A DNA stretch of 53,762 bases from a virus (lineage: Duplodnaviria; Heunggongvirae; Uroviricota; Caudoviricetes), in the IMG/VR virus record IMGVR_UViG_3300027710_000010, positions 1 through 53,762 of that record, one strand, 5' to 3'. The notes beneath the pieces were generated by a model. That model did no database searches and had not been told where the DNA came from. It saw only the letters and a list, made by a program, of their open reading frames with translations. The translations under genes and the position numbers were made by a program. Below are positions 2,544 through 51,823 of the stretch, piece by piece. How positions within the stretch are numbered: position 1 is the stretch's first letter; every line of letters starts with the position of its first letter.

Positions 2544-3206
2544 TTAGACGGGTAATTCGTTAATAACGCGGTCGATTCTGCCGATTTCGGAGCCTAAAAA
2601 CATCTTAACCATGGTAAGACACTTTTCGTCCTTTACATAGAAGTAGCAACCACCCCAACTGCGATCTCGACCTAGATCACGTATAGCGGCATTGGTCATC
2701 TTTACTTTAGTATTATTTTCAGTCCATGCTATAAAACTAGCATAACTGTGTCTTGTTCTCCCCATAGTTACACGGAATCCGTAATTAATTTTAGGGAGAT
2801 AAACTGTATTTTTTTCTAATTTAGGTTGTAAAGCTGTACCAGGCTGACTTACATACTTTGTACGATTTACATCTACATTGCTCAGTGTAACAATGTCATT
2901 AAAATTGTTAGAGTAAAATGACAACAACGGATGTTCTACCCTAATGTCAAATCCAGTACGTTTTGACAATACTGATTCTAGTTGTAGACAGTAGTCTAAA
3001 TCTTGTTGTGTTTTTAATTTACTCCACAAGGGAGTGTCCAGCGGTAACTTTTTGCTATCAATTAGCAATAACTTTTCTTTAGCAAAATCTAAATTAACAC
3101 CTCTGAACCAGCTGGCAACAGGACATACCAGTACTGCCTTGTACTGGTATTTGTCCATAAACAGACGTTTAGTTGTTTTGACTAGAATCTTGGGGTTCAG
3201 TTTCAT
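2544..3206 (-). CDS. Hypothetical protein
   Basis: 220-aa ORF overlapping the clpA 3' end. Confidence 0.75.
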   Translation of the reverse strand: MKLNPKILVKTTKRLFMDKYQYKAVLVCPVASWFRGVNLDFAKEKLLLIDSKKLPLDTPLWSKLKTQQDLDYCLQLESVLSKRTGFDIRVEHPLLSFYSNNFNDIVTLSNVDVNRTKYVSQPGTALQPKLEKNTVYLPKINYGFRVTMGRTRHSYASFIAWTENNTKVKMTNAAIRDLGRDRSWGGCYFYVKDEKCLTMVKMFLGSEIGRIDRVINELPV

Positions 3207-5436
3207 TCTCTACCAATGTGACTTTGGGTGCTTTTACTTTCTTAGTTAGCACGACATTGTCCCCGTCTGTGGTAATATTGAGCATGCCGCCGTCCTTTAG
3301 TTCTCCAAACAACATCATTTTACTCAATGGACGTTTAATTAGTTGATCAATAGTACGTTGCAACGGACGTGCGCCCATTTTACTATCAAACCCTTTCTTA
3401 ATTAACAAGTCAATTGCATCGTTAGTAATCTTAATCTTAATGCCTTTTTCTTTAACTTGGTCACTAAGTTCACTAATAAATTTACCAACAATTTTAGTCA
3501 TTGTTTCTTTAGCAAGTTTCTTAAATGTTACAATAGCATCTAAACGATTACGGAATTCAGGAGCAAAGAATTTCTTAAGTTCCTTATCTTCATACTCGTT
3601 TTCTTGTGCGCCAAATCCAATCTTATTTTTCTCTGCGGCACTTGCTCCCGCATTTGTTGTGAGAATAAGAACAATATTTCGGCAGTCTGCTTTTTTACCA
3701 TTACTACCAGTAACAAATCCATTGTCCATAAGTTGCAACAGGATAGTGCTGACATCTGGATGTGACTTTTCAACTTCGTCAAACAACAGAACGCAATTAG
3801 GATTTTCTTGAATCTGTGTAATCAACAAGCCTGCATTTTCTTCAAAGCCAACATAACCTGGAGGGCTACCAATTAGCTTACTTAGACTGTGTTTTTCTTG
3901 ATACTCTGACATATCAAAACGCAACAGCTTAACACCTAAATTCTTAGCCAGTGCTTTAGCAGTTTCTGTTTTACCACAACCTGTTGGGCCCATAAACACA
4001 AAACTACCGATCGGCTTGTTTTCTGATTTTAGCCCTGCTCGAGCAACAAGAATTTTGTCCACTACTTCTGTAATAGCGTTATCTTGTCCGTAAACTTCTA
4101 ACTGTAGCTGACTTTCTAAATTAGCCAAGTTACTGCTTTCAGTTTCTGCAATAGCTTCAGCAGGCATTTGTACCATCTGTGCTAGTTCATATTGCACTTC
4201 GCTTTCACCTACGACACGTTCGTCTACCAGTTTGATGTTAAAGCGTGAGCAAGCACAATCAATTAAGTCGATTGCTTTATCTGGCAATTTTTTATCACTT
4301 TGATATTTCACACTTAGTTTAACTGCGGCACTTAATGCTTCATCTAAAATTTTAACTTTATGATGTGTCTCATAATACTTCTTAAGACCTTTTAGAATTT
4401 GCAATGCTACTTCTGGAGTAGGCTCATCAACAGTAATGCGTTGGAAACGACGCATCAATGCACGGTCTTTTTCAAAGTACTTACGATATTCATCCCAAGT
4501 AGTCGACGCAACAACTTTGATATTGCCCTTGCCTAGTGCAGGCTTCATCATGTTAGCAAGGTCGTTTGCACTGTTGCCTGCACTACCTGCACCGCTAATC
4601 ATATGTGCCTCGTCGATGAACAGGATAGTTTTACCTTTTTTCTCTAGACCTTTAAGAACTGATTTAAATCGTTCTTCAAAGTCTCCTCGATACTTACTGC
4701 CAGCCAGCATACTACTAATGTCTAAGTTGAATACTTGATAATCTTTTAGGAATTCAGGTACTGCGCCCTTAACAATATTAAATGCAAGACCCTCAGCAAT
4801 AGCAGTCTTACCAACGCCCGGCTCGCCTACAAGCATTACGTTATTTTTATTTCTACGTCCCATTGCAAGTGCAATGTTCTCCAACTCACTTATACGACCG
4901 ATAACAGGATCAATCTTATTCTTCTTAACTGCGTCATTAAGGTTAGTTGTAAATGCTTTTAACGCACGTTCGCTTTGTGTATCAGGCACTTCTTCTTCAC
5001 CGCTTTCAATTTCGTTATTCAAATAATCTGCAAACTTGTCCTTGTCAATTTCTGCTTGCTGGATATAGTACAATGCCCAACTACGTTTCTCGCTCATAAT
5101 TGCAAGGAACACATCTGTTGGTTCAATCTGTTGACGACCATTGAATAGCACTTGTGTAAATGCTCGATTAAGAACACGCTCAACTGCTTGAGTTTTCTTT
5201 GGTTTAGAAACATTAGTGACTACGATATCGCTAAGTTTTGTCTTTAGATAATGTTCTAAATTCTTTTTAATGTAGTCTGGATCTGCTCCATACCCATGAA
5301 CACATTTAGAAAAACTATCTTCGCATAGCATAGCAAAAAGCAAATGCTCGATAGTCAAATATTCATGTTGTAGTTTTTTGGCTACGTCAATAGCTTTTTC
5401 AAATACTAGTTTTAGATTTTCGCTGGGTTCTACCAT
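3169..5436 (-). CDS. clpA: ClpA-type AAA+ unfoldase (Clp protease ATP-binding subunit)
   Basis: Clp-N domain (EHLLFAML), two Walker A motifs (GEPGVGKT, GPTGCGKT), IDEAH and FDEVEK Walker B motifs, IGF ClpP-docking loop, GARPL; 755 aa with no long M-domain. Confidence 0.93.
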   Translation of the reverse strand: MVEPSENLKLVFEKAIDVAKKLQHEYLTIEHLLFAMLCEDSFSKCVHGYGADPDYIKKNLEHYLKTKLSDIVVTNVSKPKKTQAVERVLNRAFTQVLFNGRQQIEPTDVFLAIMSEKRSWALYYIQQAEIDKDKFADYLNNEIESGEEEVPDTQSERALKAFTTNLNDAVKKNKIDPVIGRISELENIALAMGRRNKNNVMLVGEPGVGKTAIAEGLAFNIVKGAVPEFLKDYQVFNLDISSMLAGSKYRGDFEERFKSVLKGLEKKGKTILFIDEAHMISGAGSAGNSANDLANMMKPALGKGNIKVVASTTWDEYRKYFEKDRALMRRFQRITVDEPTPEVALQILKGLKKYYETHHKVKILDEALSAAVKLSVKYQSDKKLPDKAIDLIDCACSRFNIKLVDERVVGESEVQYELAQMVQMPAEAIAETESSNLANLESQLQLEVYGQDNAITEVVDKILVARAGLKSENKPIGSFVFMGPTGCGKTETAKALAKNLGVKLLRFDMSEYQEKHSLSKLIGSPPGYVGFEENAGLLITQIQENPNCVLLFDEVEKSHPDVSTILLQLMDNGFVTGSNGKKADCRNIVLILTTNAGASAAEKNKIGFGAQENEYEDKELKKFFAPEFRNRLDAIVTFKKLAKETMTKIVGKFISELSDQVKEKGIKIKITNDAIDLLIKKGFDSKMGARPLQRTIDQLIKRPLSKMMLFGELKDGGMLNITTDGDNVVLTKKVKAPKVTLVENETEPQDSSQNN

Positions 5437-44208: not shown

Positions 44209-44829
44209 TTACGGTCGTTTTTCAATGACTTTGTCTGCCAAGCCGTATTCTACAGCTTCAGCCGCACTCAAAAACGTATCAAATTTCATCGCTTCAAATA
44301 ATGCTTCGTAAGTCTTCCCCGCAGTATTATGTTTGACATACAGTTGGGTTAACCGTTGATTGATACGCTGGCTTTCTTCAAAACTACGCTTTGCATCTTC
44401 AAACTGTAGTTCTTGTACGTGAACGCTACCGCGTGTTCCAGGGGTACCTGAACTAACACGATGGATCATAGTGCGGCTTTCGGGCAAGACAAATCGTTTA
44501 CCTTTTGCTCCAGCTTGGGCAAGGAATGACCCCATACTACAGGCCTGCCCAATAACGTAGGTAGCAATATCTGGTTTGATGAACTGCATAGTGTCGTAAA
44601 TTGCCAAGCCCGCTGTAACACTGCCACCGGGGCTGTTAATAAACAAATTAATGTCTTCATTGCCTTGACTCTCCAAGAAGAGTAACTGCGCTACAATCAA
44701 ACTTGATGTGTGTTCGTTAACATCTGTGTCTAACATCAACACACGGTCTTTGAGCAAACGGCTATAAATGTCATAGGCACGTTCGCCTTTTGCTTCGGTC
44801 TCAATGACCATTGGTACCAAATTTGGCAT
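44209..44829 (-). CDS. clpP: ClpP serine protease subunit
   Basis: YDIYSRLLKDR, NSPGGSV, catalytic Ser (ACSMGS), His (MIH) and Asp (FDTFL). Confidence 0.95.
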   Translation of the reverse strand: MPNLVPMVIETEAKGERAYDIYSRLLKDRVLMLDTDVNEHTSSLIVAQLLFLESQGNEDINLFINSPGGSVTAGLAIYDTMQFIKPDIATYVIGQACSMGSFLAQAGAKGKRFVLPESRTMIHRVSSGTPGTRGSVHVQELQFEDAKRSFEESQRINQRLTQLYVKHNTAGKTYEALFEAMKFDTFLSAAEAVEYGLADKVIEKRP

Positions 44830-50301: not shown

Positions 50302-50856
50302 TTATAGTTCTTCATCATTGTAAGGAACAGGCCTCCATCCTAACCGATTTAAATCTAATTCAATTTCTTCGGTTACTACACCTTCAGGTACGTAGCCATT
50401 TGCTCTGCGGTGATCTAAGCCGTAACCAGTTTCTTCGTTGCCAATGCCACTACAGTACCAATCAATGTAGTCGCCTTCTTCCTTCATGTCGGCAACTATA
50501 CCGCCAGCATGACGCCATGAGCAACCCCAAGTTTTACCCTTTAGTTCTTGCCAAAATTCTCTACTTTGCCAATCCATGTTGCACATTGCGGCATACAAGT
50601 TTTGGGCATAACTATCCGACTCTTTAACTTTATCGCATAGTTCTTTACTGCTACGCAAATCGTATTCCATGTTGTTCTTTTGCCAAGCAGGATCGTGGAT
50701 CTTGTTAGCTTCGTCGATCTTAATTTGATCCCACATATCAATGTATGATTGGTTAGGTTCTTCACCTTTTTCCTCTGCCCGTTTAATTGCACCTTCCTTT
50801 TGAAAGGTATGACGTTCGGGACTTGATGCTACTTTTTTATTCATTTTTTCCTGCAT
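50302..50856 (-). CDS. Hypothetical protein
   Basis: 184 aa; YAQNLYAAMCN and SWRHAGGIVAD segments. Confidence 0.75.
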   Translation of the reverse strand: MQEKMNKKVASSPERHTFQKEGAIKRAEEKGEEPNQSYIDMWDQIKIDEANKIHDPAWQKNNMEYDLRSSKELCDKVKESDSYAQNLYAAMCNMDWQSREFWQELKGKTWGCSWRHAGGIVADMKEEGDYIDWYCSGIGNEETGYGLDHRRANGYVPEGVVTEEIELDLNRLGWRPVPYNDEEL

Positions 50857-51178
50857 GCCAGTCGCCCTGGAAACAATGCATCATCTCATGTCCTACAGTT
50901 CGCATGTCTACTTTTTTAGGAACTATAACAACGCACTTGTTGTCCCAAAAGAATGTACATGCCAAAACACCGTAGCCGTAACCGTTGTTGCCAAATTTTC
51001 GACTCATCGTATCACACGTTTTTTGTATGTCTTTTTGATCTACGTATTTTAATTCAATAGTAGTTTTGTTGGTAATGTTCTTACTCATGTCAAAGGTGCG
51101 TCCACCGCTGTTATCAAAGCTCCATTGTGCTTGTGCGACAATTGGCAACATCAATAGTACTGCAAGTGCCTTTTTCAT
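50837..51178 (-). CDS. Secreted small protein with HExxH motif
   Basis: Signal peptide ending AQA; four Cys; GHEMMHC. Confidence 0.7.
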   Translation of the reverse strand: MKKALAVLLMLPIVAQAQWSFDNSGGRTFDMSKNITNKTTIELKYVDQKDIQKTCDTMSRKFGNNGYGYGVLACTFFWDNKCVVIVPKKVDMRTVGHEMMHCFQGDWHAGKNE

Positions 51179-51204: not shown

Positions 51205-51302
51205 TGGTGTAGTCGGCAGGATTCGAACCTGCAAAGCATGACAATGTCACAAGCCCGTCCCTCCCCGAAGGGAGGAGGTATACCAGTTCCACTCACGACT
51301 AC
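51205..51302 (-). ncRNA. Class II (Leu-like) tRNA-like RNA with encoded CCA but a UUCG tetraloop in place of the anticodon loop
   Basis: GUAGUCG/CGACUAC acceptor stem, A73-CCA, GGAACUGGUA D-loop, GCAGG-UUCGAAU-CCUGC T-arm, CCUCCC-UUCG-GGGAGG arm, ~26-nt variable arm. Confidence 0.75.
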
Positions 51303-51308
51303 AATGTA

Positions 51309-51337
51309 ATTATACAGTCTATCACAATGTTTGTCAA
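51309..51337 (-). promoter_or_regulatory. sigma70-type promoter TTGACA-N17-TATAAT for the tRNA-like RNA
   Basis: Perfect consensus; predicted +1 falls at about the first base of the acceptor stem. Confidence 0.8.
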
Positions 51338-51366
51338 AAAAAATGGTGACCGAAGTCACCATTTTT
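51336..51366 (-). terminator. Intrinsic terminator ending the RNA-repair operon
   Basis: Minus strand AAAAAUGGUGAC-UUCG-GUCACCAUUUUUUUU. Confidence 0.9.
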
Positions 51367-51823
51367 AAGTGTACCAAATTTCGGTAAACCCTTCGTCCAA
51401 AGTTGGTTCATCAAAACCATCAATCATGCTACGCATAACATGGTTTGGAATGTTCTTCCCTGGACGACTTGCCAAACGCTTTTCCAATTCTTCAGAATCT
51501 GGAGTACGGAAGACAACCGCGATGTGCTCGTAATCGGGCAAGGTATTAAACTTACGCTTACGGCTGTTCTGTGTAGTCGAAGTTTGATCCCAAATAACAT
51601 CCAACCCGTTTGCTTGACAAACCAACGCTTGGTTAGCCATCAATCGAACAGCGATTGGCATATATTCGTCGAACACTTCGGAGTAAGTCTTACCTTGTTC
51701 CTTAGCGTATGCTTCAACAAAATTGTCAGTGGACACTACAGGAATATCCACGGCCCAGTCTTGATTCTTAATCCAAGTACTCTTGCCAGAACCTGGCACT
51801 CCAATTAATTGATAACATTTCAT
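51365..51823 (-). CDS. P-loop kinase, polynucleotide-kinase-like (AAA_33)
   Basis: GVPGSGKST, STD, IWDQT and R-x-x-x-R lid. Confidence 0.8.
   Translation of the reverse strand: MKCYQLIGVPGSGKSTWIKNQDWAVDIPVVSTDNFVEAYAKEQGKTYSEVFDEYMPIAVRLMANQALVCQANGLDVIWDQTSTTQNSRKRKFNTLPDYEHIAVVFRTPDSEELEKRLASRPGKNIPNHVMRSMIDGFDEPTLDEGFTEIWYT

Follow-up and report, generated by a model that had tools for sequence, protein, structure and literature searches.

A 98-nucleotide (nt) RNA gene carried by an uncultured, T4-like jumbo phage very probably encodes a real and functional tRNA mimic that does not decode, as judged from its sequence and those of its relatives. The gene is located on the minus strand (positions 51302 to 51205) of the 53,762-nt stretch of DNA analysed in this study, referred to below as the window, which constitutes the first 53.8 kb of a 299.6-kb virus record of the IMG/VR database (IMGVR_UViG_3300027710_000010; estimated to be 83% complete). 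The predicted RNA has a body resembling that of leucine tRNA, in which the anticodon arm is replaced by a helix closed with a UUCG tetraloop. Elements of the same type were found in 124 loci, representing 76 distinct sequences, and none of these 76 contains a 7-nt anticodon loop. The architecture is more than chance, being shared by 76 distinct sequences that show compensatory changes in the paired positions. On balance, we lean towards an action of this RNA in trans, exerted through its body.

Architecture of the RNA gene

The RNA gene, its flanking signals and the parts of its predicted cloverleaf are as follows:

51302..51205, minus strand: 98-nt tRNA look-alike gene, apparently derived from tRNA-Leu (ARAGORN and Rfam tRNA matches, covariation within the family)
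51337-51309, minus strand: sigma-70-type promoter, composed of TTGACA (51337-51332), a 17-nt spacer and TATAAT (51314-51309), matching the consensus at 12 of 12 positions
51339..51366, minus strand: intrinsic terminator hairpin upstream of the RNA gene, GGUGAC-UUCG-GUCACC followed by U8
51302-51296 paired with 51215-51209, minus strand: acceptor stem of 7 bp, with compensatory changes in 5 of the 7 pairs in the family
51277..51293, minus strand: D arm with a GGAACUGGUAUAC-type loop as in tRNA-Leu (GGAA..UGGUA), near-invariant in alignments A1 and A2
51276-51259, minus strand: arm in place of the anticodon arm, with a U.G pair and six Watson-Crick pairs closed by a UUCG loop (51269-51266), from the minimum free energy fold
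51233..51258, minus strand: variable arm of 26 nt, with an outer stem, a 2-nt bulge, an inner stem with a triloop and a conserved CUUU junction; compensatory changes in 6 of 7 pairs
51216..51232, minus strand: T arm, GCAGG-UUCGAAU-CCUGC, 100% paired, with compensatory changes in two pairs
51208 and 51207-51205, minus strand: discriminator A73 and encoded CCA, respectively, read from the sequence

The first-pass annotation of this DNA had recognised a 7-bp acceptor stem, an A73-CCA end, a T arm and a Leu-type D loop, all of which we located on the minus strand where it had placed them. The 6-bp stem with a UUCG loop that it described is correct for the Watson-Crick pairs, below which there is an additional U.G pair, and the variable arm that it called oversized indeed measures 26 nt and covaries. 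Nucleotides A14, A15, G18G19 and A20a of the D loop were assigned by position, and the D arm is like those of the tRNA-Leu genes of the phage itself. In the ViennaRNA fold, the tetraloop arm has a free energy of -12.7 kcal/mol and its closing pair, C33-G38, has a probability of 0.93 in the ensemble.

A comparison with the Rfam tRNA model (RF00005) reveals which parts of a tRNA have been retained. The acceptor stem, the D arm, the T arm and the GG/T-loop signature are all present; the canonical anticodon arm (5-bp stem and 7-nt loop with U33, anticodon and purine 37) is missing, and a 7-bp helix with UUCG is found instead. With no anticodon loop, the RNA of the window also lacks a leucine anticodon (NAG or YAA). 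Its RF00005 score was 30.0 bits, against a gathering score of 29, in a scan restricted to 351 nt of this region, and it was not listed in the gathering scan of the whole window; a relative with a long arm obtained just 14.4 bits. The proposal that the RNA modulates the stringent response is not supported, as this would need codon pairing in the ribosomal A site, which is impossible for the window RNA.

The consensus promoter at the first base of the RNA and the terminator upstream of it, both proposed in the first-pass annotation, were also borne out. The predicted transcription start is G51302, i.e. nucleotide 1 of the RNA, and the -10 hexamer ends 6 nt before it. The upstream hairpin has a predicted folding energy of -15.3 kcal/mol (z = -4.5), and none of 200 shuffled sequences was equally stable; its U-run (51343-51336) overlaps the start of the -35 box. 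This hairpin is predicted to close the preceding transcription unit, which contains kinase and RNA-repair genes. No terminator was found in the window after the CCA of the RNA, where the trailer is unstructured, and the next open reading frame (ORF) begins 27 nt 3′ of the CCA.

Conservation of the body and diversity of the arm

Relatives of the RNA were retrieved in three ways: (i) by scanning viral contigs with an anchor composed of the tetraloop and the T loop, (ii) by scanning viral contigs with an anchor composed of the D and T arms only, and (iii) independently of the RNA, via the downstream-encoded protein P0001, which has 208 relatives in IMG/VR, from which 80 loci were kept. Both anchored scans yielded dozens of loci with the same architecture. 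The element is present in all 80 loci fetched with P0001 (75-121 bits with a covariance model derived from 19 sequences of the tetraloop type). The window RNA itself scores 106 bits with covariance model R1, whose seed contained the window sequence.

In the 80 loci (52 distinct sequences), standard pairs account for 97.9% of the pair cells and compensatory changes are found in 16 of the 29 pairs. Not one of 500 shuffles reached the observed value, and slid registers also fell far below it. Among the 76 distinct members, A73 is invariant and 73 end with ACCA. The other three (L003, L013 and L016) have ACCG ends, which would have to be trimmed and repaired by the CCA-adding enzyme. The geometry of the promoter is equally constant: its spacer measures 17 nt in all 76 members, both hexamers match the consensus in at least five of six positions in 75, and in 73 the -10 hexamer ends 6 nt before nucleotide 1. 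The first ORF begins 9-40 nt downstream of the element in 75 of the 76 distinct loci. The window copy shares all of the features of the family, namely the Leu-like body with no anticodon loop, a promoter that starts transcription at nucleotide 1, the ACCA end and a position at the head of the P0001 operon. The view of the first-pass annotation that the gene is not a pseudogene is thus upheld by the conserved promoter geometry, by the compensatory changes in the body and by the lack of an anticodon loop in every distinct member. Homologs with normal loops, which would have pointed to a local deletion, were searched for and none was found among the 76 distinct sequences.

The arm that replaces the anticodon arm occurs in three types. 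Type A, to which the window copy belongs (20 distinct sequences), consists of CCUCCC, a UUCG, UUUG or UUAG loop, and GGGAGG; its stem is invariant in the 19 sequences included in alignment A2, while the third base of the loop may be C, U or A. Type B (16 distinct sequences) has a 5-bp stem with a CUUG-type cap, and an A-U to G-C covariation is observed in this stem. In type C (40 distinct sequences) a 5-bp CCUCC/GGAGG stem is prolonged by a further hairpin. Thirty of the 76 distinct members, all of type C, contain an internal loop, 5′-(U/A)AGUA ... GAAC-3′, between the CCUCC/GGAGG stem and the variable hairpin (e.g. L106:2520-2637, L072:2484-2594 and L124:2550-2659). By our own reading, at the level of sequence, this AGUA/GAAC loop resembles a bulged-G (sarcin-ricin or loop-E) motif. 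Many type C hairpins also have a C-rich loop (ACCCC or ACCCCCA) placed on covarying stems. One outlier, counted outside the 76 sequences (L050:690-790, minus strand), has the same body and promoter and scores 61 bits with the family model; its arm consists of 5 bp and a 9-nt loop, UUUUAAUAC, it lacks the CCA, and ARAGORN does not call it a tRNA. Of the conserved tetraloop and the covarying stems that were to be looked for among homologs, covariation was found for the body; the tetraloop itself is not the conserved feature, as most relatives have a longer hairpin.

On a maximum-likelihood tree of P0001, the arm types are scattered, with at least six changes for type A and at least five for type B. 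The sister locus of the window on this tree, L054 (91% P0001 identity), has a longer arm. The scatter on the tree of a neighbouring gene therefore indicates a labile arm on a conserved body, and the arm appears to be evolutionarily interchangeable. The 19 type A sequences of alignment A2 alone have 11 pairs with compensatory changes, located in the acceptor and variable stems. The body thus appears to be under purifying selection even where the arm is a bare cap, and this is the main addition that the window copy provides. Since copies with bare caps show compensatory changes in the body, the function may be placed in the tRNA-shaped body. The window copy may be viewed as a natural minimal version of the RNA, with the arm cut down to a tetraloop, and it steers the search for a function towards the acceptor end, the elbow and the extra arm.

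Conversely, the body might be a mere scaffold, with the function residing in an arm module (e.g. the AGUA/GAAC loop with the C-rich loop) and the window copy being an emptied, decaying version. The longer arms of 40 of the 76 distinct members, 30 of them with the AGUA/GAAC loop, would suit this explanation, as would the longer arm of L054, the closest relative of the window. We nevertheless consider it improbable, because bare caps make up 36 of the 76 distinct sequences and have arisen repeatedly, as seen from the tree, and because the copies that bear them keep the promoter, the ACCA end and, in the 19 type A sequences, the 11 compensatory pairs, which is not a pattern of decay.

It is extremely improbable that the RNA decodes, either as a tRNA-Arg(UCG) formed through a slipped fold or as a +1 frameshift suppressor with an 8-nt loop. 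ARAGORN does name the window RNA tRNA-Arg(tcg), solely via a slipped stem with a C-A mismatch, as the first-pass annotation had cautioned, and the sequence also allows an 8-nt loop, CCUUCGGG, to be drawn on a stem of 5 bp. However, in ViennaRNA the slipped fold with a 7-nt loop is about 12 kcal/mol worse than the tetraloop fold, the alternative with an 8-nt loop is 7.4 kcal/mol worse, and a normal tRNA-Arg(UCG) is already encoded by the phage. Moreover, the UUCG, UUUG and UUAG loops, present on near-identical bodies, would switch between Arg, Gln and Leu, and types B and C lack any such loop. An intron-containing tRNA was rejected too, as removal of the inserts leaves no loop.

The family is large and, within the limits of our searches, appears to be confined to phages, its members originating from uncultured freshwater phages. 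When 185,579 genomes of bacteria and archaea were scanned for the pattern of the D and T arms, 19 loci were obtained, all of them ordinary tRNAs scoring no more than 38 bits with the family model. No match to the 1.2-kb region was found among cultured phages with blastn, and the sole tblastn match of P0001 among cultured phages was weak and partial, in a Bradyrhizobium phage. The family has no entry in Rfam 15, and no description of it emerged from the literature searched on anticodon-less or tRNA-mimic phage RNAs. A catalogue of candidate viral structured RNAs from 2023 includes a motif designated DNAVirus_2961, which overlaps ARAGORN tRNA-Arg calls only sometimes (PMC10690425). It may represent the same family; the shared point is the tRNA-Arg call made by ARAGORN on the type A copy of the window.

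Likeness to leucine tRNA and possible modes of action

The Leu-like character of the body, pointed out in the first-pass annotation, is supported by the invariant A73, by the core nucleotides being in place and by model matches. The phage encodes 38 ordinary tRNAs, located at a distance of 7-15 kb from the element and including three tRNA-Leu besides the tRNA-Arg(UCG); CCA is encoded in each of them except tRNA-His. The best match of the family model among these 38 is tRNA-Leu(UAA) (35.5 bits; the next scores 28.9), and in phage T4 it is also tRNA-Leu. With class II tRNA-Leu the family RNA shares the 7-bp acceptor stem, A73-CCA, the T loop UUCGAAU, the D-loop signature, U48 and a long variable arm. 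It differs in (i) the lack of an anticodon loop, (ii) a longer variable region, (iii) a D stem with a shifted register, and (iv) its own promoter with a start at nucleotide 1, in place of processing from a tRNA array.

The nucleotides of the tertiary core used by leucyl-tRNA synthetase (LeuRS), i.e. A14, A15:U48, G18G19 and A20a, together with the junction, have all been retained and do not vary in alignments A1 and A2, according to the assignment by position. For LeuRS, the anticodon has no identity role, and charging can proceed in the absence of the anticodon arm (PMC2377443, PMC9976931); deletion of the whole arm in the tRNA-Leu of Aquifex reduced the affinity only 2.5-fold (PMC2377443). 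Leucylation of the family RNA is plausible because the nucleotides used by LeuRS are kept and the anticodon arm can be dispensed with. A minimalist tRNA-Leu with no anticodon arm, as cited in PMC9976931, and the Aquifex deletion (PMC2377443) likewise have a Leu body without a functional anticodon arm and are LeuRS substrates in vitro. These constructs are engineered, whereas the family RNA is natural and conserved and retains a capped helix in place of the arm. Whether the RNA is in fact charged with leucine is a narrower matter, and we rate this as slightly the less probable outcome.

The following course of events is proposed. Transcription from the consensus, early-type promoter would start at nucleotide 1, so no cut by RNase P would be needed. 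The RNA, which has no terminator of its own, would constitute the 5′ end of a transcript that covers a conserved operon, and could be freed by the ordinary tRNA 3′-end trimming of the host. It would then act in trans, its tRNA-shaped upper body being recognised by host proteins that read the acceptor end, the elbow and the long extra arm, and not the anticodon. LeuRS is the prime candidate for such a partner and would probably leucylate the RNA. A long-lived, non-decoding mimic of tRNA-Leu, present from the start of infection, could serve as a sponge or decoy for a tRNA-binding host factor, or as a carrier of leucine outside the ribosome.

Several observations weigh against this proposal. The variable arm is approximately twice as long as in a normal tRNA-Leu (26 nt vs. 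13-15 nt), and grafting of an arm of tRNA-Ser size onto the Aquifex tRNA led to considerably lower leucylation (PMC2377443). Because of the over-long arm, charging could be poor, or it could be performed by seryl-tRNA synthetase instead. The D stem contains just three pairs, one of them G.U or G.G, and its register is shifted by one relative to the tRNA-Leu of the phage. Initiation at nucleotide 1 would give an RNA with a 5′ triphosphate, in contrast to a mature tRNA. No partner protein was found, and the predicted fold of P0001 matches nothing named. Finally, the element always precedes the same operon, at a distance of 9-40 nt from its first ORF, which would be just as compatible with a leader acting in cis.

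Such a leader is the main rival of the trans-acting mimic. In this scenario, which we regard as rather unlikely, the element would be a structured 5′ end or a form of tRNA punctuation, the 3′-processing cut made by the host would set the 5′ end of the mRNA, and the freed RNA would be a by-product. The element does stand at +1 of the same operon, with no terminator and with the ORF following at the short distance given above, and a scan with the model revealed it at no other place in the window or in the tRNA array of the phage. A precedent is provided by the t-elements of plant mitochondria (PMC1920247). However, the invariant A73, the encoded CCA, A15/U48, G18G19/A20a and a covarying extra arm have all been kept, and none of them would be required in a processing signal. 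In 3′ maturation of the E. coli type, moreover, an encoded CCA marks the product for keeping, which also speaks against a leader.

A more specific form of the trans-acting mimic, to which we assign a similarly low probability, is a purpose-built aminoacyl-tRNA mimic, synthesised within the first minutes of infection, that is proof against nucleases and ribosomes. It might (i) deliver leucine to a non-ribosomal acceptor, for instance in N-degron tagging that supplies the ClpS-ClpA-ClpP of the phage, or (ii) act as a sponge for a defence factor that reads the acceptor end or the elbow, such as a CCA-modifying or acceptor-cleaving toxin. If true, either version would define a new class of RNA, used by phages as a counter-measure or for host takeover. 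If charged, the RNA would represent a naturally occurring carrier of aminoacyl groups outside the ribosome, or act as a tRNA decoy in the conflict between phage and host. The family RNA could, in addition, serve as a compact natural tRNA scaffold.

The first-pass annotation had also raised the possibility that the RNA is a dedicated aminoacyl donor for the ClpAP of the phage. Part of this machinery is indeed encoded: a ClpA-like ATPase (window 3169-5436, minus strand; TIGR02639, 876 bits, slightly below the cut-off), ClpP (window 44209-44829, minus strand; 238 bits) and also ClpS (109938-110174 of the genome, minus strand; 94.6 bits), the last being present in three of five large related contigs. 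The RNA could thus be a leucyl donor for the leucyl/phenylalanyl-tRNA-protein transferase (L/F-transferase, Aat) of the host, and the proteins tagged with an N-degron would be destroyed by the phage ClpS-ClpA-ClpP; a non-decoding Leu-RNA would presumably not be consumed by ribosomes. We find this very doubtful. In the phage record (83% complete), no homolog of Aat, Bpt or FemAB was detected, and a class I synthetase was not found either. The L/F-transferase of E. coli prefers G3:C70, C72, A4:U69 and C68 in the acceptor stem (PMC4105747), and the window RNA contains A3:U70 and the family-invariant G4:C69, so that, of the preferred nucleotides, only C72 is present. The co-occurrence with ClpS lies inside one phage lineage and is not independent evidence.

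Related RNAs and genomic neighbourhood

To our knowledge, non-decoding tRNA look-alikes with an accepting end are limited to scattered cases, i.e. the tRNA-like domain of transfer-messenger RNA (tmRNA), YrlA and T4 rnaC. The tRNA-like domain of tmRNA has G3.U70 as its alanine identity and is joined to an mRNA-like part. We rejected the possibility that the element is part of a tmRNA, as position 3:70 is A-U in the window, G.U is never the commonest pair in the family, and the phage has its tmRNA elsewhere. The latter was predicted by ARAGORN as a permuted (two-piece) gene at 95167-95617 of the genome (minus strand), outside the window, with the tag AKTSTFKFFEVPASVARAANAERFELAA.

The YrlA-type Y RNAs, associated with Ro60/Rsr, are also non-coding RNAs with a tRNA-like module that occur near genes for RNA repair and quality control. 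YrlA ends in a Ro-binding stem, its "acceptor" being closed. The family RNA, in contrast, has normal acceptor ends and CCA, and its RNA-repair/Ro60 neighbourhood is not conserved in the family. A Y RNA was rejected, since no Rfam match to one was found in the region even at E ≤ 10 and the ends of the RNA pair to give an ordinary acceptor stem, followed by CCA. With the staphylococcal tRNA-Gly species used in cell-wall synthesis the shared point is the concept of a tRNA kept for its aminoacyl end and not for decoding. These non-proteinogenic tRNA-Gly have a normal anticodon loop and Fem transferases as partners, whereas no transferase was found in the phage of the window.

Species 1 RNA of phage T4 (rnaC), a small RNA located in the tRNA cluster of T4, is likewise phage-encoded, tRNA-related and stable; it has a canonical T arm, GGGUUCGAAUCCC, its ends are paired, it lacks an anticodon, and no function is assigned to it in the T4 record. 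It differs from the family RNA in being 139 nt long, in lacking a GG D loop, in being cut from a tRNA precursor and in having no promoter of its own. Homology to rnaC was rejected, as model R1 gave no rnaC match at E ≤ 0.1, yet it matched the T4 tRNA-Leu, tRNA-Ser and tRNA-Thr. The AGUAG ... GGAAC pieces of rnaC (L053:1409-1547, minus strand) recall the type C motif, which is at most an analogy, since the family model does not match this RNA.

The genes adjoining the element in the window are as follows:

50837..51178, minus strand: first ORF, encoding a 113-amino-acid (aa) protein whose translation shows a signal peptide at the N-terminus and an HEMMH (HExxH) motif at the C-terminus
50302..50856, minus strand: second ORF, encoding the 184-aa P0001, the best-conserved neighbour and the retrieval marker (208 IMG/VR relatives)
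51365..51823, minus strand: P-loop kinase (AAA_33, polynucleotide-kinase-like), the last gene of the RNA-repair unit (Pfam and PHROG matches)

Conserved synteny extends downstream of the element, and comprises the 113-aa protein, P0001 and then several small or mid-size ORFs. A homolog of the 113-aa protein is encoded at the same position in 39 loci (approximately 30-40% identity). P0001 is encoded 350-480 nt downstream of the element and shows 42-91% identity across the syntenic loci (70-91% in the 80 loci). Its family comprises 727 representative clusters in a library of 1.84 billion proteins, and it has no match in Pfam, PHROGs or the protein atlas. The AlphaFold model of P0001 is confident (predicted local distance difference test score of 91); no PDB structure matches it at E ≤ 0.001, and the only matches are to unnamed clusters of the AlphaFold database.

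Upstream of the element, the unit that ends with the P-loop kinase also encodes a phosphoesterase, a T4-Rnl1-like RNA ligase, a SLOG-like protein and a 77-aa protein. The RNA-repair operon next to the RNA, to which the first-pass annotation had drawn attention, is thus real in the phage of the window and is not a property of the family: an RNA-repair kinase or phosphoesterase is encoded upstream in only 11 of the 111 loci for which 2 kb or more of upstream sequence is available. This link therefore appears to be a feature confined to a sub-lineage. In most relatives the upstream region contains two or three paralogous, divergent radical-SAM/SPASM genes, with a start about 35 nt from the element, and a gene for a protein of approximately 200 aa. 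An example of the radical-SAM cluster is L003:992-4612, which faces the promoter of the element. In the phage of the window, the intervening DNA contains the RNA-repair unit, a Ro60-like gene and the tRNA array.

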